The translations under genes were made by a program, and so were the position numbers. This document shows, piece by piece, positions 1 to 12,646 of a DNA stretch of 64,000 nucleotides; the first letter of the stretch is position 1, and the number at the start of each line of letters is the position of its first letter. The stretch spans positions 512,524 to 576,523 of the forward strand of contig CALNZV010000020.1 in the NCBI GenBank assembly GCA_942491115.1. Direction: 5' to 3'. This stretch comes from an uncultured Desulfobacteraceae bacterium. GTDB taxonomy: Bacteria; Desulfobacterota; Desulfobacteria; Desulfobacterales; UBA5852. The notes under the pieces were generated by a model. That model searched no databases. It was not told the DNA's origin and worked only from the letters and a program-made list of their open reading frames with translations.

Positions 1-24
1 TTCACCGTCGAAAGGGACGATTCC

Positions 25-546
25 ATGAAGTGGCACTGGCTGCCGATCCTGGCTCTTTGCCTGTTGAAATCAACGGCACTCGGAGCCGGCCCCACACCCG
101 GCGCGCAGCCGGCGGCCCCAGAGGGTCGGATGATCATCTCGCCGTCGGACCGATGCCCGGTCTGCGCGATGCTGCCGTCCCGGTTCCCGCGATTTGCAGC
201 GGCAATTCAATTGACGGACGGTGCCACCTACTATTTTTGCAGCCCGGGATGCATGATTACCGCCTGGCTCCGTCCGGAAGTGGTTCTGGGGATCCCCCCC
301 TCGAAGCGCCTCAGGGCCCTGGCCTCCGATTATTTCACCTCCCGTCATACCGATGCCGGGAATCTTCTGTGGGTGCCGGGTTCCGATGTGATCGGCCCGA
401 TGGGGCCGGCGGTGGTTCCACTGGGAACTGAAGAGGACATGCGCGCCTTCAGACGGCGGCACGGAGGATGGGTACCCTTCACCCTTGAAGATCTGACGAT
501 CGAACAGTGGGAGGCTATCCGGTCTGGAAGAGACCCCTCGCCATGA
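25..546 (+). CDS. NosL-family (Cu chaperone-like) secreted protein
   Basis: 173 aa. ATG at 25 with AAAGGGA upstream. Signal peptide MKWHWLPILALCLLKSTALGA. DRCPVCAM...YYFCSPGCM pattern typical of NosL-type proteins. Stop overlaps the next start (ATGA 543-546). Confidence 0.75.
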   Translation: MKWHWLPILALCLLKSTALGAGPTPGAQPAAPEGRMIISPSDRCPVCAMLPSRFPRFAAAIQLTDGATYYFCSPGCMITAWLRPEVVLGIPPSKRLRALASDYFTSRHTDAGNLLWVPGSDVIGPMGPAVVPLGTEEDMRAFRRRHGGWVPFTLEDLTIEQWEAIRSGRDPSP

Positions 547-902
547 ACGACCCTATTCTGCCAGCCGCGGATCCTCCCCGGGGCATCGCCACCAGGACCG
601 GAGACCGGATGGGACTCTCCGCGGCAATCGCCATCGGCGTCCTCGTCCTTGCCATCGCCGGAGCCGGCGCAGTCGGCATTCACATGGCGGCAACCGCCAA
701 TCGGAACTGGCCGGCAGTGCTCTCCCTGCAGGAGGCCACAGGCCTTTCAACTCCCGCCTGGAGTCCTAGCGGCCGACCATTGCGGATGCCGTCGGGGATG
801 ATCCCCGGCGTCGACCTTCGGTATGTTCCCGGGGTGCCTGCGGTGGCCCCTGCCTTGACGGATCCCACCTCCGCCCTGGTTGCTCGGGAGCCTGAAAGAT
901 GA
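543..902 (+). CDS. hypothetical single-pass membrane protein (Pro-rich C-terminal part)
   Basis: 119 aa from the ATG in the ATGA overlap at 543-546. One hydrophobic helix (LSAAIAIGVLVLAIAGAGAVGI). Ends in an ATGA overlap at 899-902. No recognisable domain. Confidence 0.5.
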   Translation: MNDPILPAADPPRGIATRTGDRMGLSAAIAIGVLVLAIAGAGAVGIHMAATANRNWPAVLSLQEATGLSTPAWSPSGRPLRMPSGMIPGVDLRYVPGVPAVAPALTDPTSALVAREPER

Positions 903-2056
903 TTCGGTTATCCCCTCCCCTCCTCTTGTGGGCCGTCCGGGACCTGATCCGCCGGCCGGTAGAATCCCTGATGCTGGTGGCCGCCCTGGGACTTTGCATC
1001 GCAATCACGGGAACGCCTCTCCTTTCCGCAGAGGCCCTCAGCCGATCCGTCGACGCCCTCATCTCCAAGGGGCCATCGGCCGTTCTCCGGAGGATTTCCC
1101 CCTTGGGGTGGGCGCCCCTTCCGCTTGAGGCGGTCGAGATCGCCGCATCCATCCCCGGCATCCTCTCCGTCAGACCACGCATATGGGGCGCGGTAATGGG
1201 GCCGGAGGGTCCCGTCACTATCATGGCCGCCGACGACCAATTGCTGGAGGGTCTCAGGCCCTTCGGCGCTGGGGATGGCCCCGAACCCGGCGAAGCCATT
1301 GCGGGCCGCCAGCTGCAATTCGCCGCCGGCCAGGGAAGGATCGAAATTCGGGGGGTCGATGGATATCGGTCTTTTCAGTTGAAGACCCTACTCGACGCCG
1401 GCGCGGACGCCGTTGCCTTCGATCTGGTCGTCTTGGACGAAACGGATGCCCGATTTCTTCTGGGCCTGCCCGACGGCCATGTCAGCGATCTGGCAGTGAA
1501 TGTCTACCATGAACAGGAACTGGCCGCCATGATGAGCGATCTGTCCTCCGGGTTTCCCTGGACGGTCGGCATCACTACCCGGGCGCAGACGCGCCGACAC
1601 TACCGCTCCTTCTTCGGCAGCCGATCCTCCCTGCAGACCGGGGCCGTGGCGTCGGCCGCCGTGGCCCTGGCCCTATTGGTGGCGACCACCCTTCGCGATC
1701 GCATCAAACGCCGGCGGGAGACCGGTCTTCTCAAGGCCTTCGGGTGGAGCACCTCCGATTTGGTCGCGGCGGAAGTGATCCGTTCCGGCGTTCTGGCCCT
1801 GAGCGCCGGCGCCCTCGGTGCCTGCCTGGCATATGGGGTCGTGTTCGGTTTTGGCACCCCATGGCTGACCGCACTTCTATTCGGATGGCAGGGCCCCATA
1901 CCCGAGATGGTGCTGACACCGAAGGGCGCCCTGGTGGTGATGATCGAAATCGCCGCCTGCATTCTCCTACCCTATCTGGCAGCTGCCGTCGGGCCGCTGC
2001 TGATATACGCCACCAAACCGGCCGAAGGATGGACCATCGACGACACGGGACCGTGA
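899..2056 (+). CDS. ABC transporter permease, FtsX/MacB/LolC-type
   Basis: 385 aa. N-terminal TM (LMLVAALGLCIAITG), a large extracytoplasmic segment, then a C-terminal 3-TM FtsX-like block (LLKAFGWSTSDLVAAEVIRSGVLALSAGALGA...). Translationally coupled on both sides. Confidence 0.8.
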   Translation: MIRLSPPLLLWAVRDLIRRPVESLMLVAALGLCIAITGTPLLSAEALSRSVDALISKGPSAVLRRISPLGWAPLPLEAVEIAASIPGILSVRPRIWGAVMGPEGPVTIMAADDQLLEGLRPFGAGDGPEPGEAIAGRQLQFAAGQGRIEIRGVDGYRSFQLKTLLDAGADAVAFDLVVLDETDARFLLGLPDGHVSDLAVNVYHEQELAAMMSDLSSGFPWTVGITTRAQTRRHYRSFFGSRSSLQTGAVASAAVALALLVATTLRDRIKRRRETGLLKAFGWSTSDLVAAEVIRSGVLALSAGALGACLAYGVVFGFGTPWLTALLFGWQGPIPEMVLTPKGALVVMIEIAACILLPYLAAAVGPLLIYATKPAEGWTIDDTGP

Positions 2057-2061
2057 TTGCT

Positions 2062-2730
2062 ATGGGATTTGCCCTCAAAGATGTCCACTTCACATACGGC
2101 CCCGAATCACCGGAAGCCTCGGCGGTATTGCGGGGGGTGAATGCCGTATTCCCCAGTGGCGCCATCGGCCTGGTCACGGGAGAAAACGGTTCAGGTAAAA
2201 CCACCCTTCTTCATCTTCTCGCCGGACTTCTCCGTCCGACCGAGGGTGAGGTCGAGGCCGACGGCCAACCGGTTTCGAGATGGACGGCCAGCCACAGAGA
2301 CCGGTGGCGACGCCGGGTGGGAATCGGATTTCAGCATCTGCGTCTTATCGGCGACCTCACCGCTCTGGAAAACGTCATGTTGCCCTCTCTGCCTCGGGAG
2401 CGATCCCTCAAGCCCCTCAGAGAGAGGGCCATGGCCGCCTTGGACAAACTGGAATGCGCCGACCTGGCATTTCGGTCAGCGGAGGGATTATCGGGAGGAG
2501 AACGCCAACGGATTGCCCTGGCCCGGGCGCTGGCTCACCACCCCCGTTACCTGATCGTCGATGAGGCGTTTTCCCATCAGGACGGGAAGGGGGCCGCATT
2601 GATCAAGACAGCCCTTGTCGGCATGGCCGAAAGGGGGGCCACCGTGGTGGCATCGGCCCACGGTTGCGAGCTCGAGTGGTGCCACCAGGCATTCCGGATT
2701 CGTCGACGAGCCCTGGAGCCCGTGAAATGA
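2062..2730 (+). CDS. ABC transporter ATP-binding protein (LolD/MacB-like)
   Basis: Walker A GENGSGKTT, signature LSGGERQR, Walker B YLIVDEA. ATG at 2062; an alternative GTG at 2053 overlaps the permease stop (GTGA 2053-2056). Confidence 0.9.
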   Translation: MGFALKDVHFTYGPESPEASAVLRGVNAVFPSGAIGLVTGENGSGKTTLLHLLAGLLRPTEGEVEADGQPVSRWTASHRDRWRRRVGIGFQHLRLIGDLTALENVMLPSLPRERSLKPLRERAMAALDKLECADLAFRSAEGLSGGERQRIALARALAHHPRYLIVDEAFSHQDGKGAALIKTALVGMAERGATVVASAHGCELEWCHQAFRIRRRALEPVK

Positions 2731-3755
2731 TCGCTCATCCGGTGGTCCTGGCCATACTGGTATCCGACGGTCTGGTCCTGGCCCTGGAAACCGGTGTGTT
2801 CCTGTTTTCGTTTCAGGCGTTGTTGAACTGGAATCCGGCATCTTCATCCAGGCGTCAGCTTCGTCTGGAGGCCATGCACGAATCGGCTGATGTGGCCGCC
2901 GGTTTTGCCTTCTGGCTCTTTGCCCTATCGACTCTGGCTCTTGGTGTGGCCGTGGCCGCACTGTTTCCGGACCTGGTTCCCGGAGCCATGTGCGGCACCG
3001 GCGTCCTCCAATCTATGGGAACGCCCGGTCCGGTGGCCCTCACTCTTCGGCTGGCGTCCCTCGCTCTTTTGTATTGCCGACGGGCGGCAATCAAACTCAA
3101 TCATTCCGATCCCAGATCTCCCGCCACCCTGTGGGATGCCCGATACCAGCTGGTCGTGTTTCCGGTGGTGGCCTGGGCTGTCGTGACCAGTGGGGGCGCC
3201 CTGACGGGAATGGACATGGAGCGGCCGGTCCATTGCTGTGCCGTCGTCTATGATGCGTTTCGCAGCATAGGGGCTGCGGGCCCCCGTGGGGAAATCCCGG
3301 ATGTCTTTCGCCTCTCGGCATTCGGTGGCTCATTCCTCCTCATCGGGTCCATTCCCCTCTATTTGGCCAGAAAAGGGACCCCAGGAATCCGTCAGGCCGC
3401 AGGCCTCCTGCTGTTGACCCTATTTTGGATGGCGGCATCGGCATCAGCCCTGGTCTATGTATTGTCGGCCTATGTGTATGAAGTCCTCCATCACCACTGT
3501 CCATGGTGCCTGTTTCTACCCATTCACCGGTCTATCGGCTTTCCTCTCTTCGCGGCCTGGATGCTGGCCGGAGCCGAATCCATGACCGCCTGCATGGCTG
3601 CAGTCCACCATAGGAGGTTTCCAGAACTCGAAGCGGTATCGTCCCGGCGATTTCGCTCTGCGGCACGGCGAACGGCAGGAGCCGCGGCCATCTTCTTCGC
3701 CATATCGTCGACACCCGCAGTGGTATGGCGGATTTGGTTCGGGGTCTGGCTGTAA
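2727..3755 (+). CDS. polytopic (~8 TM) membrane protein with conserved-looking Cys/His motifs, function unknown
   Basis: 342 aa from the ATG in the ATGA overlap at 2727-2730. About eight hydrophobic segments. Motifs MCGTG, HCCAVVYD and HHHCPWC lie in alternate loops. No family recognised. Confidence 0.7.
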   Translation: MIAHPVVLAILVSDGLVLALETGVFLFSFQALLNWNPASSSRRQLRLEAMHESADVAAGFAFWLFALSTLALGVAVAALFPDLVPGAMCGTGVLQSMGTPGPVALTLRLASLALLYCRRAAIKLNHSDPRSPATLWDARYQLVVFPVVAWAVVTSGGALTGMDMERPVHCCAVVYDAFRSIGAAGPRGEIPDVFRLSAFGGSFLLIGSIPLYLARKGTPGIRQAAGLLLLTLFWMAASASALVYVLSAYVYEVLHHHCPWCLFLPIHRSIGFPLFAAWMLAGAESMTACMAAVHHRRFPELEAVSSRRFRSAARRTAGAAAIFFAISSTPAVVWRIWFGVWL

Positions 3756-3837
3756 GACTATCGGATGGGGTGTATCAGGGGTTAACCCTCGTGAGTCGCT
3801 GGCCGTTCATGGGTGAGGGGCGGGGGGGGAGGGGAGA

Positions 3838-4047
3838 TCATGGATGGGCATTGGCGAGGCTATTGCTGGACGACGGCACCTCCCGATATTCGGGTCCGAG
3901 CCGGGGACCGGTGCGCCGATCGCTCATGATCCGCCTGTCCTTGCCGGAGCGCCGTTCCGGGATATGGCCGCTGTAAGTGTAAATGCGGCGGTCGATCCCC
4001 GATCGCCTTCCGCCATTGTCAGCAGGGTTCCCCCCCATGATCCACAT
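3838..4047 (-). CDS. small Arg-rich protein with tandem RRSGxDRR-type motifs (hypothetical)
   Basis: 69 aa (66 aa from the second ATG at 4038). Repeats: RRSGIDRR, RRSGKDRR, SDRRTG. GGAGAG precedes the ATGs and an AT-rich island lies upstream (4055-4180). No homology recognised. Confidence 0.35.
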   Translation of the reverse strand: MWIMGGNPADNGGRRSGIDRRIYTYSGHIPERRSGKDRRIMSDRRTGPRLGPEYREVPSSSNSLANAHP

Positions 4048-4087
4048 CTCTCCGGAAATTGTTGAAAAATAAACTCAATATTAGTAA

Positions 4088-4102
4088 GCAAATATCATTC
4101 CC
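4088..4102 (-). promoter_or_regulatory. possible sigma54-type -24/-12 element upstream of the small Arg-rich ORF
   Basis: Minus strand reads cgGGaatgatatttGCtt, i.e. GG-N10-GC with TTGCT at -12. It sits about 40-50 nt upstream of the ATG at 4047/4038. The match to the TGGCAC half is weak. Confidence 0.2.
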
Positions 4103-4545
4103 GGCTTTATCCCATATGGTGAATAAATATATCTAACCGATATTAAAGTGATTTTGATTTGAAGCGATAGGATCTGGATGTCGTCAGGGTCAATTCTTTT
4201 CCCAGGAGGCTGAAACCGGTTTCCTACTTTCAGCAATTCGGTTATCTAAAAAGGTCCAGAAGGCCCACAACGGTGGCCAATGGGTGCCGGATCGGATGCT
4301 GGGCAACGGTCTGAGCCTTGTCGGTCGCGTTCAGACGGTGGCAAGCCGGGGGTCTCAGATGGCTCGATCTTGCCGGTTCGCCGAGATCCGATTCAAGAAC
4401 GGTCCTCAGCGAGCGTCTTTACGGGGCCTTGGTGGCGAGTGTAGGCCAGTCGGAGAGCCGATGCCCAGAGGTCTACCAATACCCATACGGAAGGATTCTG
4501 CATCACCGCATTCAGCAATGGTTTGCCCACCGACGGGTAGAATTA

Positions 4546-4596
4546 CTAAAAAAAACAACCGGGTGCAGTGACGGCAAATCGGTCGTCTGCACCCGG
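4546..4596 (-). terminator. Rho-independent terminator after dctP
   Basis: Minus strand reads CCGGGTGCAG-(18 nt)-CTGCACCCGG followed by TTGTTTTTTTT (plus-strand A8 at 4548-4555). It starts 25 nt after the dctP stop. Confidence 0.6.
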
Positions 4597-4620
4597 CATG
4601 GGAGAGGGAAAATGACCGCC

Positions 4621-5724
4621 CTATTTCTTTAGAGCGTATTTTTCAGCGATCACATTGTAGTATGCATTTTCGGAGACCGATCCCCAAACGCCCACCTGGG
4701 CCTTGAATGTCTTGAATGCTTCATGAACCTTTCGGGACATGGCGTCTTTGTCAGCCTCTTCTTCAAGGGTTTCATCGGCCAGTTTGCGCAGGTCTTCCAT
4801 GAGCGGGTCCGGGAACCGCACCAGATTGACGTTGTGCTCCGAGATCAGGGTCTGCAAGGCGGCGCCGTTGCCGGCCTCGAATTCGGAAAGGCTCCACATG
4901 TTGGTTTCCGCCGCTACGGCGTCCACGATCGCCTGAAGATCTTTTGGCAGGGATTCGTAGGCCTTCTTGTTGAAAATAACCTCAAGGCATGTCCCCGGCT
5001 CGTGCCATCCAGGGTAGTAGTAATATTTGGCTGCTTTGTAAAATCCCATGCGAAGATCGTGCATCGGTCCGACCCATTCCGTGGCGTCGATGACCCCGCG
5101 CTCGAGGGAGGTGAAGATCTCCCCGCCGGGAAGAAGAACCACTGTCCCTCCGGCCTTGGCGATCACTTTGCCGCCCAGACCCGGGATGCGCATCTTCAAC
5201 CCCTTGTAATCGTCTATGGACTTCATCTCCTTTCGGAACCAGCCGCCCATCTGAACCCCCGTGTTGCCCTGGGGCCTGGGGATGACGTTAAAGGGAGCGT
5301 AAACCTCCTCCCACAACTGCAGTCCGCCGCCGCTGTAAAACCATGCGTTGATCCCCTGGGCGTTGAAGCCGAAAGGGACCGCTGCAAACCACTGGGCCGC
5401 CGGCACTTTACCGGCCCAGTAATATGAAGCGCCGCTGCCACATTCCACCGTTCCGTCGGAAACGGCGTCGAACACCCCCAGTGGGGGCACCAGCTCGCCG
5501 CCGGCGAACACCTGAATCTTCAGCCGCCCTTCGGAGACTTCCTCCACTCGCTTGGCAAACCGTTCCGCGCCGGTCTGAAGCACCGGCAGGTTGGGCGGCC
5601 AGGTGGAGACCATTTTCCACATGTACTTCTTCTGCGCGATGACCGCCGGAGCCGCCATCGTCGATGCCGCTGCCGCCGCCACGGCAGCAACACTCGTTTT
5701 TTTCAGGAAATCTCTTCTTTTCAT
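4621..5724 (-). CDS. dctP: TRAP transporter substrate-binding protein (DctP family, COG4663-like)
   Basis: 367 aa. Tat-like signal MKRRDFLKKTSVAAVAAAAASTMAAPAVIAQ. WKMVSTWPPNLPVLQTGAERFAKRVEEVSEGRLKIQVFAGGELVP is typical of TRAP solute receptors. AGGAAAGGAG RBS. Confidence 0.9.
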   Translation of the reverse strand: MKRRDFLKKTSVAAVAAAAASTMAAPAVIAQKKYMWKMVSTWPPNLPVLQTGAERFAKRVEEVSEGRLKIQVFAGGELVPPLGVFDAVSDGTVECGSGASYYWAGKVPAAQWFAAVPFGFNAQGINAWFYSGGGLQLWEEVYAPFNVIPRPQGNTGVQMGGWFRKEMKSIDDYKGLKMRIPGLGGKVIAKAGGTVVLLPGGEIFTSLERGVIDATEWVGPMHDLRMGFYKAAKYYYYPGWHEPGTCLEVIFNKKAYESLPKDLQAIVDAVAAETNMWSLSEFEAGNGAALQTLISEHNVNLVRFPDPLMEDLRKLADETLEEEADKDAMSRKVHEAFKTFKAQVGVWGSVSENAYYNVIAEKYALKK

Positions 5725-5788
5725 TTAGGGCTCCTTTCCTAGGTGGTGGTTGTCAGAGGAAAAACCCATCGACACGGTGAACGAAAGC

Positions 5789-5817
5789 ATCCTAATGATC
5801 TTGGACCATCGAATCAA
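5789..5817 (-). promoter_or_regulatory. candidate internal sigma70-type promoter for dctP
   Basis: Minus strand reads TTGATT-N17-TAGGAT inside the 192-nt dctM-dctP gap. Confidence 0.25.
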
Positions 5818-5916
5818 GCATTATTAAGTTAATAACCCGCCGTTGATCGATGAACATCGTTCAGTTTGTCGTGCTGGCGGATCTCCCCCACAGGATGACG
5901 GCGGTCTCGGCTCAGA

Positions 5917-7242
5917 TCAATTGCCGAAAACCACTTTCGGCAGCCAGGTAACGAGGGACGGGAAAAGGACGACGATTAGAAGCCCGATCAACTGAAAAAA
6001 GACAAAGGGGATGATACCCCGGTAGATATCACCGGTCTGAATTTCCGGCGGCGTCACCGCCTTCAGGTAGAAGAGAGAAAACCCGAAGGGCGGCGTCATG
6101 AAGGAGGTTTGAAGGTTGACGGCGATCAGGATGCAGAACCAGGCCGGGTCAAAGCCGAACTCGATCATAATCGGCGCCAGCACCGGGACGTGAATAAACG
6201 TGATTTCGATGAAATCCAGGAAAAATCCAATAACAAAGATGATACCCATGACGATGAAAAGCACGAACCACTTGCCATGGGTTTCGGCGATGCCCCCCAG
6301 GAACCCTCTGACCAGCTCGTCGCCCCCCATCCCCCGGAAGACAAGACCGAAGGCAGCGGCGCCCACCAGGATGATGAAGACCATACAGGTCAACTGCATG
6401 GTGGAGTCCATCACTTCTTTTAGAATCGTCAGGCTGAATTTTTTGTTGATAATCGTCAGGAAGGTCGCACCCACGGCCCCGACTCCGGCGGCTTCTGTGG
6501 GAGATGCGATGCCGGCGAAGATGGAGCCCAGAACGGCGAGCATCAGAAACAGGGGCGGGAACAAGGCACGGGTCACCTTCTTGAACAGGATCGACGGGGT
6601 GAGGGCGGCCAGTTCTGATTTGGGCGTTGCCGGAGCCCACTCCGGCCAGACCACGGCCGCGATAAGGATGTAGAGAATGTAGAGGCCCACCAGAACAAAA
6701 CCGGGCAGTACGGCGCCCATGAAAAGATCCCCTACCGGTACCCCGACGATGTCTCCGATCAGCACCAGTACGATGCTCGGGGGGATAATCTGCCCCAGGG
6801 TGCCAGAGGCGGAAACCGTCCCGGTGGCCAACTCCTTCCTGTATCCGCGTTTGAGCATGGTCGGAACGGCCAAAAGCCCCATGGTAACGACGGTAGCGCC
6901 GACAATGCCCGTCGAGGCGCCCAGTAGCGCCCCCACCACCACCACCGAAATGGCCAGACCGCCCCGCATTCGACCGAACAGTAGCCCCATGGTATTCAGC
7001 AAGTCTTCAGCGAGCCCCGACCGCTCCAACATGACTCCCATGAATACGAACAGGGGAACAGCCAGCAATGTGACGTTGGTCATGACCCCCCAGATGCGCA
7101 GCGGCAGCAGGTTGAAAAAGTCCCAGCCAAAGCCGATCAGCCCGAAGACCAAAGCGGTTCCCATGAGGGTAAAGGTGACGGGAAACCCCACCATCAGCAA
7201 AATGGTGAGCGCCAGAAACATCCAGCCCGGCAGGTATTCCAT
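5917..7242 (-). CDS. dctM: TRAP transporter large permease
   Basis: About 441 aa, highly hydrophobic multi-TM protein with DctM-like sequence throughout. ATG at 7242-7240 overlaps the dctQ stop (TGATG). Confidence 0.9.
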   Translation of the reverse strand: MEYLPGWMFLALTILLMVGFPVTFTLMGTALVFGLIGFGWDFFNLLPLRIWGVMTNVTLLAVPLFVFMGVMLERSGLAEDLLNTMGLLFGRMRGGLAISVVVVGALLGASTGIVGATVVTMGLLAVPTMLKRGYRKELATGTVSASGTLGQIIPPSIVLVLIGDIVGVPVGDLFMGAVLPGFVLVGLYILYILIAAVVWPEWAPATPKSELAALTPSILFKKVTRALFPPLFLMLAVLGSIFAGIASPTEAAGVGAVGATFLTIINKKFSLTILKEVMDSTMQLTCMVFIILVGAAAFGLVFRGMGGDELVRGFLGGIAETHGKWFVLFIVMGIIFVIGFFLDFIEITFIHVPVLAPIMIEFGFDPAWFCILIAVNLQTSFMTPPFGFSLFYLKAVTPPEIQTGDIYRGIIPFVFFQLIGLLIVVLFPSLVTWLPKVVFGN

Positions 7243-7772
7243 CAAGATTCTACCTCCGCCTCAGCATTTTTCCCAATGATGGTCAGAAAGCTCTTGAGTC
7301 CCAGAGAGATGCCCTGAAGGGTGATCAACCCAAACCCTGCGGGAATGCAGGCCTTGATGAGATACCGGTAGGGAATTCCGCCGGGGTCCGCGGATCCCTC
7401 CATGACGGCAAATGAGTTGCCGACGAACTTCCACGAAGTGACGATGACCATGTAGCAGCCGGGGAGCAGGAAAAACAGCACCCCCAGAAAATTGATCCAT
7501 GCCTTACCCTTGTCGCCAAAGCGCTGGTAGAAAATATCGACCCTGACATGACCGTCCTTGAGAAGGGTATAGCCGGCGCCCATAAGGAAAATGACGGCGA
7601 ATAGGTGCCATTCCAGCTCCTGGGTGAATACATAGCTCGTTTTGAATGCGTACCGCATCACGACATCGACGAAAACCACCAGGACGACCAGAGTGGTGAC
7701 CCAGGAGACCCCCTTTCCAACCCAGGTATTCAGAGTGTCGATCCACCGGCAAAGGGTCCGGATAAGCGCCAT
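7242..7772 (-). CDS. dctQ: TRAP transporter small permease
   Basis: 176 aa from the internal Met (MALIRTLCRWIDTLNTWVGK...). Four hydrophobic segments, located directly upstream of dctM. The longer ORF to 7832 has a non-native-looking N-terminus. Confidence 0.85.
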   Translation of the reverse strand: MALIRTLCRWIDTLNTWVGKGVSWVTTLVVLVVFVDVVMRYAFKTSYVFTQELEWHLFAVIFLMGAGYTLLKDGHVRVDIFYQRFGDKGKAWINFLGVLFFLLPGCYMVIVTSWKFVGNSFAVMEGSADPGGIPYRYLIKACIPAGFGLITLQGISLGLKSFLTIIGKNAEAEVES

Positions 7773-8195
7773 GGTTATTCCCTTTCTGACAAAAAAAAGC
7801 CGTCCGCTGTTGCGGGCGGCCGACGACGGCATCTTGGGTGACCGGCTGGGGATATGGGATCATGCAAAGGAGCACACCCTCGTTCATCGAAGTCGGAAAC
7901 CCTCAGTTCACAGGAGTATCCGCCGGTTCGGCTTGATGTTGGATAGAAATTGAGACTTCCATTTCGTATATTAGGGATTAAGATGGGTGTCAACCGGAGA
8001 CCGGTCGTTCGGGGGACCGACTGCCCAGATTCATTGACCTTCCCCCCCATTATTGAAGAGCACGCGACCCCGGCCCGGGCATGCCGCGTTCACCATTGCA
8101 GAGGGGTTTCCCGCGCATCCTTCGGGGAGACCGATACAGGGGAAAGATTCGTTGATGGACAGCGCTCCTCTCCGACCCCGACCGAGGATCACACG

Positions 8196-9431: not shown

Positions 9432-10277
9432 ATGAACGACCGCTCATTGCCGATGGATGGATCGCAGACCGTGAGGGATTTGACGGGCGTCATCTTCGAC
9501 ATCAAAAAATTCGCCATTCACGACGGCCCCGGCATCCGAACCACCGTGTTTCTGAAGGGGTGCCCCATGACCTGCCATTGGTGCCACAATCCGGAGGGGC
9601 AGCGGCCCGACCCTGAACCGGTTCCCTGCCCCGGCCCGGCCCCTGGACCGGAAATGGCTACGGAAACCGTCATCGGCCGCCGGGTGCGCGCCGGAGACGT
9701 TCTCGCCGAAATCGAAAAAGACCGCCTTTTCTACGATGAAAGCGGCGGAGGTGCCACCTTTTCAGGAGGCGAGCCTCTGATGCAGCCCGATTTCCTTGAA
9801 GCGCTTCTCGACGGCTGTCGATCCGCATCGATCCACACGGTGGTGGACACCACGGGCTGCGTCCCTGCCCGCGTCTTGATGAGGATTATGGGTAAAGTGG
9901 ATTTGTTTCACTACGATATGAAACTGATGGACAGCCACATCCATCGGCGATTTACCGGTGTGCCGGTCGAGCCGGTTCTCGATAACCTCCAACGGCTGTC
10001 GGCTGCCGGCCGGCCTGTCGTCATCCGTTTTCCGTTGGTGCCGGGCGTCACCGACGACGACGACAACCTGACGGCCATTTCCGACTGGCTCCGTTCACTG
10101 CCGACGCCGCCCGTCCGGCTCGATGTGCTTCCCTTCCACCATCTGCATGCCGGCAAATACGCCCGTCTGGGCCGACGGGACCCCATGGTCTGCACCGACG
10201 GGGCATCGGCCGAGGAGGCCAGATCCGCCGCCGATTTTTTCAGAACCGACGGTTTCACCGTTACCATTGGAGGATGA
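9432..10277 (+). CDS. glycyl-radical enzyme activating protein (radical SAM)
   Basis: 281 aa. DGPGIRTTVFLKGCPMTCHWCHNPE (CX3CX2C). GGGATFSGGEPL motif. Stop overlaps the GRE start (ATGA 10274-10277). No ferredoxin-like CX2CX2CX3C insert is present. Confidence 0.9.
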   Translation: MNDRSLPMDGSQTVRDLTGVIFDIKKFAIHDGPGIRTTVFLKGCPMTCHWCHNPEGQRPDPEPVPCPGPAPGPEMATETVIGRRVRAGDVLAEIEKDRLFYDESGGGATFSGGEPLMQPDFLEALLDGCRSASIHTVVDTTGCVPARVLMRIMGKVDLFHYDMKLMDSHIHRRFTGVPVEPVLDNLQRLSAAGRPVVIRFPLVPGVTDDDDNLTAISDWLRSLPTPPVRLDVLPFHHLHAGKYARLGRRDPMVCTDGASAEEARSAADFFRTDGFTVTIGG

Positions 10278-12646
10278 ACCCGATGACACCGAGAATCCAG
10301 CAGCTTCGACGGGCCAGTCTGGAGGCCCCTGCATCCATCTCCCGGGAGAGGGCACAGCTCGCCACGGGATTCATGAAAGGGGCCGAAGGGGCCGGCGACG
10401 CGATTCCCGTCATGCGGGCCAAACTCTTCAGGCACATCCTCGAGCACAAGTCCATCTGGATCGGCGACGGGGAACTCATCGTGGGGGAAAGGGGTCCCAT
10501 GCCGAAGGCGACACCCACCTACCCCGAGATCTGTCTCCACACCATCGACGACCTTGACACCCTCGCCTCCAGGGAGAAGGTGGCATTCGCCGTGGACGAT
10601 GGGGTGAAGCAGGCCTATGAGGAAACGATCATTCCCTACTGGCAAGGGAAGACCATCCGGGAGAAGATTTTCTCCTCTGTGCCGAAAGCCTGGATCGACG
10701 CCTACGATGCCGGTGTATTCACCGAATTTCAAGAGCAGCGCTCACCCGGGCACACCGTGCTGGGCGACAAGATTTACCGCCATGGATTCCTTTATATGAT
10801 CCAAGAGATCAGGGCAACAGTGGCCGCCCTGGATTTCGTGAACGACCCGAGAGCCCTCGACCGCAGAGACGAACTTCAGGCCATGGAAATCGCCGCCGGG
10901 GGGCTCATCGCCTTTGCCGGTCGGTATGCCGATGCCCTGGCTGCGCGGGCTGCTGAAGAGACCGATGTCCAACGGGCTGACGAGTTGTCGACGATGGCCC
11001 TTATCTGCCGCAACGTACCCGCCCGGGCGCCCGAGACCTTCTGGGAAGCCCTTCAGTACTACTGGTTCGTCCACTTGGGGGTCATCACCGAGCTCAATCC
11101 CTGGGATGCCTTCAATCCCGGGCGGCTCGACCAGCACCTGTATCCGTTCTACCGGCGGGAGATCGACGCGGGAACCCTCGATCGTGAGAGCGCCAGGGAA
11201 CTGCTACAGGCCTTCTGGATCAAGTTCAACAATCACCCCGCCCCGCCCAAGGTCGGGATTACGGCCAAGGAAAGCAACACCTACGTGGACTTCGCCCTGA
11301 TCAATATCGGCGGCGTCCGACCCGACGGCGCCGATGCCGTCAACGACTTGTCCTACCTGATGCTCGAGGTGGTTGAAGAGATGCGGCTGCTGCAGCCAAG
11401 CGCCATGGTGCAGTTGAGCAAAAAAAACCCGGATCGTTTCCTCAAGCGGGCCCTTTCCATCATCAAAACCGGTTTCGGTCAGCCGTCCCTGTTCAACACC
11501 GACGGCATTATCCAGCAGTTGACGGGCCAGGGGAAACGCATCGAGGATGCCCGCTGCGGCGGGGCCAGCGGTTGCGTCGAAAGCGGGGCCTTCGGCAAGG
11601 AATGCTATATTCTGACGGGGTATTTCAACCTGCCGAAGATCCTTGAACTCACCCTTCACAACGGCCTGGATCCCCGAACCGGCCGGCAAATCGGCCCTGA
11701 AACCGGAGACCCACGCTCCTTCGACAGCTTCGCCGCCGTTATGGAGGCGTTTTCACGTCAGCTCCGCCATTTCATCGACATCAAGATCCGGGGAAACAAT
11801 ATCATCGAGAGGATCAACGCGAAGTACATGCCGGTCCCCTTTCTCAGCCTGTTGATCGACGATTGTATATCCAGGGGCCTGGACTACAACGAGGGGGGCG
11901 CCCGGTACAACACATCCTATATCCAAGGGGTGGGGCTGGGCACCCTGACCGACAGCCTGTCCTCGATCCGCACCCATGTATTCGAGCGGGGCGTGCTGAC
12001 CATGGGGGAATTGCTGGCATTGCTGGAATCGGATTTCGACGGCAGTGAGGCACTGCGACGTCGTTTTCTCGAAAACACGCCACGCTACGGCAATGATGAC
12101 GACGGGGCCGACGACCTGCTATCCGAAATCTTCGAGCAGTTTCACGGAGCGGTGGACGGACGCCCCAACACCAAGGGGGGGCACCACCGGATCAATCTAC
12201 TTCCCACGACTAGCCACGTCTATTTCGGCAGCCTCCTTGGCGCCACGCCCGACGGGCGGCAATCGGGCGCCCCTCTGTCGGAAGGCATCTCACCCGTGCA
12301 GGGCGCCGACCGCAGGGGGCCGACGGCGGTGTTGAAATCCGCCGCCAAAATCGATCACCTCCGCACCGGGGGGACGCTGTTGAACCAGAAGTTCACCCCG
12401 ACGATTCTCGAGGACGATGCCGGCATCGACCGACTGGCAAGCTTGGTTCGAACCTATTTCCGGATGGATGGACATCACATTCAGTTCAATGTGGTGGATG
12501 CCGACACCCTCAGGCGTGCCCAGTCGGAGCCCGAGAACTACCGCGATCTGATCGTCCGGGTGGCGGGCTATAGCGACTATTTTGTCGATCTGACGCCCGA
12601 ACTTCAGGAAGAAATCATCGGCAGAACTGCCCATTCGGTTATCTGA
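10274..12646 (+). CDS. hypD: glycyl radical enzyme, trans-4-hydroxy-L-proline dehydratase (HypD)-like
   Basis: 790 aa. Glycyl radical motif RVAGYSDYF near the C-terminus. Thiyl loop GGASGCVESG (Cys-x-Glu, eliminase type, not the PFL Cys-Cys). Length and residues at 160, 278, 434, 436, 450, 645 and 765 coincide with the HypD residues as I recall them. Alternative start at ATG 10283 (GGAGG at 10269-10273). Confidence 0.7.
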   Translation: MNPMTPRIQQLRRASLEAPASISRERAQLATGFMKGAEGAGDAIPVMRAKLFRHILEHKSIWIGDGELIVGERGPMPKATPTYPEICLHTIDDLDTLASREKVAFAVDDGVKQAYEETIIPYWQGKTIREKIFSSVPKAWIDAYDAGVFTEFQEQRSPGHTVLGDKIYRHGFLYMIQEIRATVAALDFVNDPRALDRRDELQAMEIAAGGLIAFAGRYADALAARAAEETDVQRADELSTMALICRNVPARAPETFWEALQYYWFVHLGVITELNPWDAFNPGRLDQHLYPFYRREIDAGTLDRESARELLQAFWIKFNNHPAPPKVGITAKESNTYVDFALINIGGVRPDGADAVNDLSYLMLEVVEEMRLLQPSAMVQLSKKNPDRFLKRALSIIKTGFGQPSLFNTDGIIQQLTGQGKRIEDARCGGASGCVESGAFGKECYILTGYFNLPKILELTLHNGLDPRTGRQIGPETGDPRSFDSFAAVMEAFSRQLRHFIDIKIRGNNIIERINAKYMPVPFLSLLIDDCISRGLDYNEGGARYNTSYIQGVGLGTLTDSLSSIRTHVFERGVLTMGELLALLESDFDGSEALRRRFLENTPRYGNDDDGADDLLSEIFEQFHGAVDGRPNTKGGHHRINLLPTTSHVYFGSLLGATPDGRQSGAPLSEGISPVQGADRRGPTAVLKSAAKIDHLRTGGTLLNQKFTPTILEDDAGIDRLASLVRTYFRMDGHHIQFNVVDADTLRRAQSEPENYRDLIVRVAGYSDYFVDLTPELQEEIIGRTAHSVI

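Follow-up and report, generated by a model that had tools for sequence, protein, structure and literature searches.

A conserved eight-helix membrane protein with five invariant cysteines is tied to the metallochaperone NosL in sulfate-reducing bacteria

Introduction

The only role known to us for NosL is to supply copper to nitrous oxide reductase. In the window analyzed here, by which we mean the whole stretch of 64,000 nucleotides from an uncultured Desulfobacteraceae bacterium, a NosL variant is encoded in a self-contained module with no nitrous oxide reductase gene nearby, and the module closes with a gene for an eight-helix membrane protein (8TM protein) that carries several Cys and His motifs. 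This locus raises the question of what the 8TM protein is and what it could do beside NosL. The NosL/8TM module was not described in the literature that we searched for NosL together with FtsX, MacB, DsbD, sulfate reducers or PF13386.

Results

The 8TM gene closes a NosL-ABC operon

The gene of the 8TM protein (2727-3755, + strand, 342 aa) is the last of five genes in the order NosL, small TM protein, FtsX-type permease, ABC ATPase and 8TM protein, and all four junctions are 4-nt overlaps (ATGA at 543, ATGA at 899, GTGA at 2053 and ATGA at 2727). Its ATG (2727-2729) overlaps the TGA of the ATPase gene (2728-2730) and is preceded by a GGAG 8 nt upstream. On the + strand, nothing was found after the gene when positions 3600-4700 were scanned for terminators and promoters, and an Rfam scan of window positions 1-6000 gave no match.

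The first gene (25-546, + strand) encodes a NosL-family periplasmic metallochaperone of 173 aa (Pfam PF05573, E 1.1e-15, with a weak YHS match) whose sequence includes a signal peptide and a four-Cys signature of the TRASH type (CPVC...CSPGC). Across the NosL proteins of the module (n=40), conservation is 90% or higher for C44, C47, C72, C76, M49, M77, M126 and H146. The second gene (543-902, + strand), which overlaps the NosL stop and the permease start by 4 nt each, encodes a small single-TM protein of ~119 aa without any Pfam or NCBIfam match; the protein is weakly conserved and has no conserved Cys, His or Met, and a gene of 83-135 aa was called at the same position in six related loci (L001-L006). 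The third gene (899-2056, + strand) encodes an FtsX/MacB-type (type VII) ABC permease of 385 aa (Pfam PF02687 FtsX, E 3.7e-6), composed of an N-terminal TM helix, a periplasmic domain of ~200 aa in which no Cys, His or Met is conserved, and a C-terminal FtsX domain. The ABC ATPase of 225 aa (2053-2730, + strand; Pfam ABC_tran, E 1.4e-30) has a GTG start that overlaps the permease stop, and its best NCBIfam models, FtsE and LolD, both score under their cut-offs.

The neighbourhood was mapped by tblastn across 81 loci of the 8TM family. The ABC ATPase gene lies directly upstream of the 8TM gene in 79/81 loci, the FtsX gene is upstream in 76/81 and NosL in 68/81, and a divergent DsbD_2 gene accompanies the 8TM gene in at least 59/81; most loci that miss an expected neighbour are truncated contigs. 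The 4-nt overlap with the ATPase gene is present in the window and in L001-L006 alike. All four upstream genes are found in the window with the 8TM gene last, and the position of DsbD_2 would fall beyond the left end of the window; at that position, locus L007, which encodes an 83%-identical 8TM relative (DNA 84% identical), has a DsbD_2 gene. The DsbD_2 neighbour (Pfam PF13386, E 1.2e-36) carries an HCxxMCGP motif and an LPCG motif, which by likeness to CcdA may be assigned to TM1 and TM4, respectively. Considering that neither the small protein nor the FtsX-type periplasmic domain has conserved Cys, His or Met, the thiol chemistry of the module seems to be confined to NosL, the 8TM protein and DsbD_2.

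In one case NosL and the 8TM protein are a single protein. P0253, from a Myxococcales MAG (HEY3450284.1), is one polypeptide that runs from a signal peptide through a NosL domain (PF05573, E 1.8e-15) into the 8TM protein, and its locus (L088) keeps the divergent DsbD_2 gene without FtsX or ABC genes. As such, the functional core of the module seems to be NosL, the 8TM protein and DsbD_2, and the 8TM protein is tied to NosL both genetically (68 of the 81 loci) and physically (one fusion).

Eight helices, with the Cys motifs on the periplasmic side

The AlphaFold2 model of the 8TM protein (mean pLDDT 91, pTM 0.87) contains eight long helices, at residues 5-34, 42-82, 100-125, 134-160, 192-214, 221-251, 271-297 and 299-338, and three short loop helices (90-96, 171-177 and 259-263), each of which begins at a Cys motif. 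The model is of low confidence after the CC pair, where pLDDT falls below 50 at residues 177-188. Among 237 full-length homologues, the odd-numbered loops hold 10.2 Lys and Arg residues in ~53 residues, and the even-numbered loops together with both termini hold 3.0 in ~76 residues. This bias indicates an N-out/C-out topology with loops 2, 4 and 6 in the periplasm, and the fusion of a signal peptide and NosL to the N-terminus of the 8TM protein in P0253 also places that terminus in the periplasm, independently of the Lys and Arg count. All three Cys motifs are therefore predicted to be periplasmic. The original prediction was right on these points: its roughly eight hydrophobic segments correspond to the eight long helices, its assignment of MCGTG, HCCAVVYD and HHHCPWC to even-numbered loops on one face, rather than on opposite faces, agrees with the residue counts and the fusion, and its view of the gene as the terminal, translationally coupled member of a NosL/ABC operon agrees with the overlap at 2727.

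A shared face of three motifs is not improbable in itself, as it would arise by chance in about 1 of 4 cases; judged from the aligned homologues, it is the conservation that makes the Cys pattern more than chance. The only conserved polar residues inside the helices are D14, R108 and E284, and no Cys, His or Met in mid-membrane or at the cytoplasmic face is conserved among the 237 homologues. The 8TM protein alone is thus unlike a trans-membrane thiol-relay transporter. An internal 4+4 TM repeat was rejected, since hhalign of the N-half against the C-half gave a probability of 0.12%.

Five cysteines are invariant in an unnamed family

A word-indexed search identified 422 homologues among 8000 candidates scored. 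The family comprises 902 clusters at 50% identity (E<=1e-3) and occurs in 163 of 185,579 species genomes, mostly those of sulfate-reducing Desulfobacterales. As defined here, its members are ~340 aa long with eight TM helices and the invariant motifs GAMCGxGV, PVxCC and HxCxxC. The window protein has this length, the eight helices and all three motifs, and it belongs to the family over its full length, as at least 120 homologues align with it at 100% coverage. It is a real, strongly conserved member of an unnamed and uncharacterised family.

We calculated conservation from the 237 full-length homologues. C89, C170, C171, C258 and C261 are invariant in 237/237 sequences, and this holds down to ~30-35% overall identity. 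The first motif, MCGTG (residues 88-92; C89 codon 2991-2993), is part of the loop-2 motif G86-A-M-C89-G-T-G-V93 (2982-3005, + strand) at the N-terminus of short helix 90-96, where G86, C89 and G92 are conserved at 100%, A87 and M88 at 99%, and G90 and V93 at 98%. The second, HCCAVVYD (residues 169-176; C170/C171 codons 3234-3239), belongs to the loop-4 motif P-V168-x-C170-C171-A-x-x-Y175-D176 (3225-3254, + strand), which places a vicinal Cys pair at the start of helix 171-177; besides C170 and C171 (100%), V168 reaches 98%, Y175 92% and D176 79%. The third, HHHCPWC (residues 255-261; C258 codon 3498-3500, C261 codon 3507-3509), lies in the loop-6 motif V-L-h-H256-h-C258-P-W-C261-L-F-L-P-e-H267 (3483-3527, + strand) with its CxxC at the N-terminus of helix 259-263, and W260 (95%) and P259 (89%) accompany the invariant C258 and C261.

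Three His residues are also conserved, namely H256 in 235/237 homologues (99%), H4 in 92% and H267 in 89%, the latter two on the periplasmic side. C117, C289, H51, H126, H169, H294 and H295 are not conserved. Of the three His residues that the original prediction had placed before the CxxC, only the middle one, H256, proved to be a family feature, with H255 at 52% and H257 at 67%. Likewise, its Cys positions turned out to be invariant, but the His of HCC did not hold: position 169 is usually Asp in the family and His in the window protein. Reactive or metal-binding thiolates are usually found at the N-terminus of a short helix, and proteins that transfer Cu(I) or Hg(II), among them MerT/MerF, Cox17 and HMA domains, typically carry vicinal Cys pairs and CxxC motifs with His.

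The 8TM protein does not belong to known membrane thiol protein families

The window protein has no Pfam or NCBIfam match at E <= 1, PDB sequence searches with the protein and with the family profile gave no match even at E <= 10, and Foldseek of the model against PDB gave no significant match (all E >= 0.12, TM-score <= 0.34). The failure of the original prediction to match the protein to DsbB, VKOR, CcdA, NosR/NapH or NosY is consistent with these searches, none of which produced a confident hit that would place it in another family.

Individual candidates were rejected as follows. Membership in DsbD/CcdA/DsbD_2 (PF02683, PF13386) was rejected because there is no Pfam match and no repeat comparable to the 3+3 repeat of that group, and because the Cys residues are in loops rather than inside TM1 and TM4; hhalign of the family against 61 DsbD_2 proteins of the module gave a probability of 0.26%. 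NosR/NapH, which combine CX3CP motifs with ferredoxin-type Fe-S domains and, in NosR, an FMN-binding domain, were rejected owing to the lack of a Pfam or NCBIfam match at E <= 1 and of a CX3CP motif in the 8TM protein, and NosY (an ABC-2 permease) owing to the lack of a Pfam or NCBIfam match and because the operon permease is the separate FtsX-type gene at 899-2056. MerT/MerC/MerF and CopD are absent among the Pfam hits of 36 family members even at E <= 10.

VKOR required a closer comparison. Pfam VKOR (PF07884) gave sub-threshold hits in 3/36 members and none in the other 33, including the window protein. In the best of them, residues 162-264 of P0097 align with HMM positions 25-121 (E 6.4e-4, 20.3 bits; gathering score 27.5), and both Cys motifs lie inside the matched stretch, which begins shortly ahead of the CC pair and ends shortly after CPWC. 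However, when the family profile (237 sequences; in full and as residues 128-305) was compared with a VKOR profile by hhalign, the probability was only 0.15-0.17%, in a comparison of limited power because the VKOR profile, made of 120 cyanobacterial sequences with the human, fugu and Synechococcus proteins, is narrow (Neff 2.4). The 120 homologues were gathered from the VKOR of a Chroococcidiopsis plasmid; a homologue search seeded with the Synechococcus VKOR fragment found nothing. An hmmsearch for a relation between VKOR and the 8TM family was negative, as was single-sequence hhalign of the 8TM protein against human VKORC1. When the whole model and a separate model of the TM4-TM7 sub-domain (pLDDT 79) were compared by Foldseek with PDB, VKOR entries included, no VKOR or DsbB appeared in the top 50, and the four-helix-bundle fold of VKOR/DsbB was not recovered. 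Based on the gathering score, hhalign, hmmsearch and Foldseek, we rejected VKOR family membership and kept VKOR as a functional analogy only.

Discussion

A proposed soft-metal site as the partner of NosL

The 8TM protein is most likely NosL's membrane partner for the handling of a soft metal, probably copper, in sulfate-reducing bacteria. More specifically, we propose, tentatively and with slightly less than even confidence, that Cu(I) or another soft metal passes between NosL and a thiolate/imidazole site which the 8TM protein presents to the periplasm. Copper is suggested by gene context as well: a Cu(I)-type P1B ATPase gene (TIGR01511 502 bits, HMA domain, PF12156) lies immediately downstream of the 8TM gene in L078, such a gene adjoins DsbD_2 in L058, and P0266 links the 8TM ORF with a Cu-ATPase C-terminal tail. 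A Cu-ATPase is adjacent to the module in only a few loci, and no cuproenzyme gene is conserved in the 8TM neighbourhood. Neither NosD or NosZ nor mer genes were called in the flanks of those related loci whose genes were listed. Of the two kinds of site that the original prediction had suggested, thiol-disulfide or soft-metal, the context of NosL as direct partner, DsbD_2 and the occasional Cu-ATPase favours metal handling over a redox role.

In the proposed mechanism, the 8TM protein would work from within the membrane together with NosL, the metallochaperone of the periplasm. C89, C170/C171 and C258-P-W-C261, carried on three short helices, may come together with H256, H267 and H4 in one soft-metal site, most likely for Cu(I). 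By exchange of ligands, metal would move between this candidate site and the Cys/Met/His site of NosL, in one direction or the other, much as in the NosL-NosD, MerP-MerT and CopC-CopD pairs. ATP-driven conformational work in the periplasm, which loads or strips the high-affinity site, probably comes from the co-translated FtsX-type ABC transporter, and the divergent DsbD_2 may either keep periplasmic thiols reduced or carry metal across the membrane. Metal binding, Cu(I) as the metal, the direction in which it moves and what the ABC transporter and DsbD_2 do are all inferred. The metal at the candidate site could equally be Zn, Cd or Hg.

Alternative roles

Some points count against metal handling. 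We know of no metal transporters among FtsX-type ABC systems, and the CP-aromatic-C motif, which resembles the redox motifs of DsbA and glutaredoxin, together with nearby UbiE/UbiA genes would fit better with a quinone-coupled redox role. The 8TM protein could then be a membrane thiol:disulfide oxidoreductase that works like DsbB/VKOR without being homologous to them, a role that we consider unlikely but the main alternative. CPWC would exchange electrons with menaquinone, and the loop-4 CC, perhaps with C89, would pass them on to, or receive them from, a client in the periplasm. The four Cys of NosL are the most likely client, and their oxidation would force metal release before DsbD_2 re-reduces them; the CcdA-like DsbD_2 would thus be the opposing reductive arm. 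The co-linear VKOR hits in 3/36 members are in line with this, and so is the spacing of 87 residues from C171 to C258, compared with 81-89 from the loop Cys to the CxxC in human VKORC1, as well as the low-confidence and presumably mobile loop after the CC pair. Genes of the UbiE/MenG type (TIGR01934, 239 bits vs a cut-off of 158) and UbiA type lie within 9 kb of the module in 19/46 evaluable clades, on either side and in several arrangements, but their proximity could be synteny inherited within Desulfobacterales. Moreover, the VKOR hits stay under the gathering score of 27.5 bits and are absent in 33/36 members, neither hhalign with the narrow VKOR profile nor the Foldseek top 50 points to VKOR or DsbB, and two adjacent Cys residues, as in the CC pair, form a disulfide poorly.

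A further and clearly less probable proposal is that the 8TM protein represents a third, structurally new class of membrane thiol enzyme beside DsbB/VKOR and DsbD/CcdA, which runs a redox-gated metallochaperone cycle with DsbD_2. In such a cycle, the 8TM protein would use the menaquinone pool to oxidise the four Cys of NosL or a mixed NosL-8TM metal-thiolate site, and the oxidation would force a tightly held chalcophile metal to be released or passed on in the sulfidic periplasm. Electrons from the cytoplasm would then let DsbD_2 reduce the site again, while the type VII ABC transporter adds mechanical work.

A purely architectural role, in which the 8TM protein is a subunit that supports or anchors the FtsX-type ABC complex, is very improbable. 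Its Cys residues would then form structural disulfides or a structural Zn site, shape a platform on which NosL docks, and have no catalytic or transfer role. The 4-nt overlap with the ATPase gene suggests stoichiometric co-production, and CPxC with His resembles zinc-knuckle motifs. Nevertheless, the 8TM protein persists, fused to NosL, in a locus without FtsX or ABC genes, and its gene is an orphan in L028 and L038, so it is not merely an ABC subunit. Five invariant Cys are an odd number for structural disulfides, and their invariance in 237/237 sequences, with a partner that has thiol motifs, argues for active chemistry.

The least credible role is that of an electron-transfer protein that binds an Fe-S cluster, or haem through His, on its periplasmic face, between the quinone pool and a periplasmic reaction. 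In its favour, the best-ranked Foldseek neighbours (cytochrome bd subunits, CcmF and ACIII ActF) are membrane proteins that handle haem, cydAB is upstream in five loci, and the number of Cys and His residues would suit a 4Cys or 3Cys-1His cluster. However, these neighbours are all non-significant, there is no CxxCH because residue 262 is Leu, the Cys spacing matches, in our assessment, no standard Fe-S motif, and Fe-S sites in the periplasm usually depend on a folded domain being exported by Tat, which is inapplicable to a polytopic membrane protein.

Comparison with known systems

The 8TM family has no name, no detectable relatives and no fold match in PDB, yet it is tied to NosL, once by fusion. 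Sulfide-loving metals are both scarce and toxic in sulfidic sediments, and if the five-Cys site handles Cu(I) or another such metal, it would show how strict anaerobes move these metals there; if quinone-linked thiol chemistry is true, the family would be a new class of membrane redox enzyme. With eight conserved candidate ligands (five Cys and three His), a defined partner and a natural fusion, the 8TM protein is a compact experimental target.

Among known systems, NosL-NosDFY is the copper-delivery machinery of nitrous oxide reductase, described for Pseudomonas stutzeri (overview in PMC13068155). In both, the genes of a NosL-family chaperone and of an ABC ATPase and permease that act on the periplasmic side stand together. 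The module differs in that the permease is FtsX/MacB-type rather than ABC-2 NosY, the module NosL keeps the four-Cys TRASH signature, and the 8TM protein and DsbD_2 are present as two additional membrane proteins with thiol motifs.

The 8TM protein may share with VKOR/DsbB a periplasm-facing CxxC at the membrane interface and, with VKOR, a Cys pair in a preceding, presumably mobile loop, and CPWC (258-261) and CC (170-171) have a VKOR-like spacing. Unlike them, it has eight TM helices rather than four or five, its loop pair is vicinal, and a fifth invariant Cys and conserved His are added; the motif order in DsbB is opposite. Among CcdA/DsbD_2 proteins, the DsbD_2 neighbour of the 8TM protein shares an MCG motif with it, but the Cys residues of the 8TM protein are in loops and not within TM helices, and the two are unrelated by hhalign.

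In the MerP-MerT/MerF system, a periplasmic CxxC chaperone works with an inner-membrane protein that has a vicinal Cys pair at its periplasmic side, and the pairing of NosL with the vicinal pair of the 8TM protein is similar. NosL itself is structurally related to MerB and has a TRASH fold (PMC10114901). Unlike MerT, the 8TM protein has no conserved cytoplasmic-side Cys to receive the metal, and no Pfam MerT/MerC match. CopC-CopD, finally, combines a periplasmic copper-binding protein with an 8-TM inner-membrane partner, and the two are occasionally fused (YcnJ in Bacillus), much as NosL is fused to the 8TM protein in P0253; in contrast with CopCD, the candidate ligands of the 8TM protein are dominated by Cys rather than His/Met, there is no Pfam CopD match, and the ABC and DsbD_2 partners of the module are without counterpart.

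Topology and conservation of the 8TM protein

The 8TM protein, encoded by an ORF of 342 codons at 2727-3755 (+), contains eight long helices according to both a Kyte-Doolittle scan and an AlphaFold2 model built from 36 homologues (pLDDT 91, pTM 0.87), matching the original prediction of about eight hydrophobic segments. In the model, short loop helices start exactly at the Cys motifs, at residues 90-96 (after C89 of MCGTG, loop 2), 171-177 (C170/C171 of HCCAVVYD, loop 4) and 259-263 (C258-P-W-C261 of HHHCPWC, loop 6). Over 237 full-length homologues, the mean Lys+Arg count was 10.2 in loops 1, 3, 5 and 7 versus 3.0 in loops 2, 4 and 6 plus both termini, so that the positive-inside rule predicts an N-out/C-out protein whose three motifs are all periplasmic. 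In the homologue P0253 (locus L088, 8001-9482; HEY3450284.1 from a Myxococcales MAG), the 8TM part is preceded in the same chain by a signal peptide and NosL (PF05573, E 1.8e-15). The N-terminus of this family member must therefore be periplasmic, and the fusion is an independent check on this orientation. The earlier proposal that the Cys/His motifs share one membrane face agrees with both the charge counts and the fusion, and that face is predicted to be the periplasmic one.

A word-indexed search returned 422 homologues at E <= 1e-3 among 8000 candidates scored, nearly all of 341-347 aa and unnamed, while searching 1.84 billion cluster representatives with the family profile gave 902 clusters at E <= 1e-3, of which 236 reached E <= 1e-30. 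Members are present in 163 of 185,579 species genomes; these are mostly Desulfobacterales or Desulfobacteraceae MAGs, joined by some Myxococcota and by Desulfoferrobacter suflitae DRH4, which is cultured. C89, C170, C171, C258 and C261 are each present in 237/237 full-length sequences, followed by H256 (235/237), H4 (92%) and H267 (89%); the window protein's other Cys and His (C117, C289, H51, H126, H169, H294 and H295) are not conserved. The expected conservation of the Cys/His positions thus held for the five motif Cys and H256 but failed for H169 and the outer two His of the HHH triplet, of which the middle one alone is essentially fixed. Also conserved are G86, A87, M88, G90, G92 and V93 around C89, V168, Y175 and D176 around the CC pair, P259, W260, L262, F263 and L264 around the CxxC, and three polar residues within helices (D14, R108 and E284). 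A search for internal duplication in the protein found none. Five invariant Cys, together with two to three conserved His, make up a cluster on the 8TM protein that faces the periplasm.

Family assignment

The original prediction could not place the protein in a known family, and database searches gave the same outcome. Neither Pfam nor NCBIfam matched the window protein, neither the protein nor its profile matched PDB sequences even at E <= 10, and Foldseek of the full model against the PDB gave nothing better than E 0.12, with TM-scores normalised to the query of at most 0.34 throughout the top 50. Sub-threshold Pfam VKOR matches were found in 3 of 36 homologues. In one of them, P0097, residues 162-264, a range that takes in the CC pair as well as the CPWC motif, were co-linear with HMM positions 25-121 (E 6.4e-4; 20.3 bits, gathering score 27.5). 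When the family profile was aligned by hhalign with an assembled VKOR profile, which was narrow (Neff 2.4), the probability was 0.15-0.17%, and neither VKOR nor DsbB was among the top 50 Foldseek matches in the PDB of the full model or of a separate TM4-TM7 model (pLDDT 79). No relatives of the 8TM component are detectable.

Operon and conserved module

The start codon of the 8TM gene and the TGA stop of the ABC ATPase gene share the sequence ATGA at 2727-2730, and a GGAG stands 8 nt upstream of the ATG. Every junction among the five genes from 25 to 3755 is a 4-nt overlap (ATGA 543, ATGA 899, GTGA 2053, ATGA 2727), and the upstream genes encode a NosL-family protein (PF05573, E 1.1e-15), a small TM protein of no known family, an FtsX-type permease (PF02687) and an ABC ATPase whose best models, FtsE and LolD, both scored under their cut-offs. 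These overlaps and family matches confirm the proposed terminal, translationally coupled position in a NosL/ABC operon. A divergent DsbD_2 gene would be expected just past the left edge of the window, where it is present in L007, the 83%-identical relative, which shows 84% identity in its DNA.

Gene calls in four independent contigs gave the same module of divergent DsbD_2 (PF13386), NosL, small protein, FtsX, ABC and 8TM. When reference proteins were mapped by tblastn onto 81 loci, the ABC ATPase was found directly upstream of the 8TM gene in 79, FtsX in 76, NosL in 68 and divergent DsbD_2 in 59, most absences being due to short contigs. L088 keeps a divergent DsbD_2 and the NosL-8TM fusion, annotated as NosL only, and lacks the FtsX and ABC genes. 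Because only these parts are retained there, we take NosL, 8TM and DsbD_2 to be the conserved functional core and the ABC transporter to be accessory. Conserved thiol ligands are confined to the same three proteins: besides the 8TM cluster, NosL has C44, C47, C72 and C76 (TRASH-like CxxC...CxxxC) with M49, M77, M126 and H146, and DsbD_2 has GTGHCxGMCGP and LPCG. The NosL partnership of the 8TM protein is obligate and sometimes covalent, and DsbD_2 is its constant companion. Orphan 8TM copies outside the operon occur at L028 9938-11029 and L038 9986-11029, the latter preceded by a gene for a 91-aa secreted protein of no known family.

Variable neighbours

A P1B ATPase (TIGR01511, the copper-translocating subfamily model, 502 bits and above cut-off; HMA domain; PF12156) lies directly downstream of the module in L078 and beside DsbD_2 in L058. 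In P0266 (L089 1807-3090), the 8TM ORF continues as the C-terminal ~100 residues of a P1B ATPase of the Cu(I) type, with YN...P and MxxSS motifs, either as a real fusion remnant or through a frameshift or assembly artefact. Such Cu(I)-type ATPase neighbours hint at copper. No cuproenzyme was conserved near the module loci. On plasmid pCHRO.01 of Chroococcidiopsis thermalis, a heavy-metal P-type ATPase gene overlaps at its end by 4 nt with a VKOR-family gene (L087 460-1386); since membrane thiol oxidoreductases can thus partner metal pumps in operons, ATPase adjacency does not separate a redox from a metal reading.

Of the 46 clades (70% identity) that could be evaluated, 19 have a gene for a UbiE/MenG methyltransferase (above the TIGR01934 cut-off), a UbiA-like prenyltransferase or both no more than 9 kb from the 8TM gene (L001, L002, L003, L010, L021, L029, L055, L059 and others). 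These genes stand on either side in varied orientation, in at least three arrangements, one of them directly downstream and on the same strand; a gene for a Cyt-b5/DUF2231 membrane protein recurs with them beside the module. This company is a hint of quinones.

In L037, L066, L069, L070 and L084, the genes upstream of DsbD_2 are, in this order, cydA, cydB, an epimerase and a second NosL, a two-domain protein of 326 aa with PF05573 twice and weak YHS and HMBD matches. In the window, the gap of 865 bp that follows the 8TM gene contains a 69-aa ORF with repeated RRSGxDRR motifs (3838-4047, -). Nine other loci have stretches of 71-79% identity to the DNA at ~3884-4033, and the gene called there is 53-63 aa long, lies on the same relative strand and is often 5-9 kb away from the module. 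The ORF seems to be a small conserved gene of its own. Further downstream, TRAP transporter genes (DctP/DctM/DctQ-like ORFs) and a radical-SAM activase/glycyl-radical enzyme pair (4621-7832, -; 9432-12646, +), identified via shared ORF clusters or position and with Pfam families taken from the L002 genes, follow the same order as in L002 and look like lineage synteny unrelated to the module.

Discussion

Vicinal CC, CxxC and His are typical ligands of Cu(I)/Hg(II) transfer. The original prediction, confirmed as an observation and partly supported as an interpretation, left a thiol-disulfide and a soft-metal site side by side; the cluster proved conserved and periplasmic, and we tentatively prefer, at somewhat under even chances, a soft-metal thiolate/imidazole site, with Cu(I) the most likely metal, that exchanges metal with NosL. 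Metal would pass between the 8TM cluster and NosL through ligand exchange, the FtsX-type ABC transporter would supply periplasmic mechanical work, and DsbD_2 would either keep thiols reduced or move metal across the membrane. Any such metal flow may serve uptake, efflux or delivery to an enzyme.

The main alternative, a quinone-coupled thiol oxidoreductase with NosL as its substrate, is rather unlikely: the VKOR-like order and spacing of the motifs, the mobile loop that follows the CC pair and the nearby quinone genes speak for it, but the VKOR homology and fold tests failed and the loop Cys pair is vicinal. A purely structural ABC subunit is a lesser possibility that fits poorly with a fusion locus lacking ABC genes and with the existence of orphan copies. 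A carrier of Fe-S or haem, likewise a lesser one, has neither motif support nor significant fold support.

A full-text literature search found no description of the NosL-8TM module or the 8TM family, and listed members, where named by a source, are called 'hypothetical protein'. This is a clean and strongly conserved family that lends itself to experiments and takes NosL biology past denitrification, with no bearing yet on a long-standing open question. The module's combination of a periplasmic chaperone, a membrane partner and an ATPase follows a known logic, with NosL-NosDFY, MerP-MerT and CopC-CopD as comparable systems.
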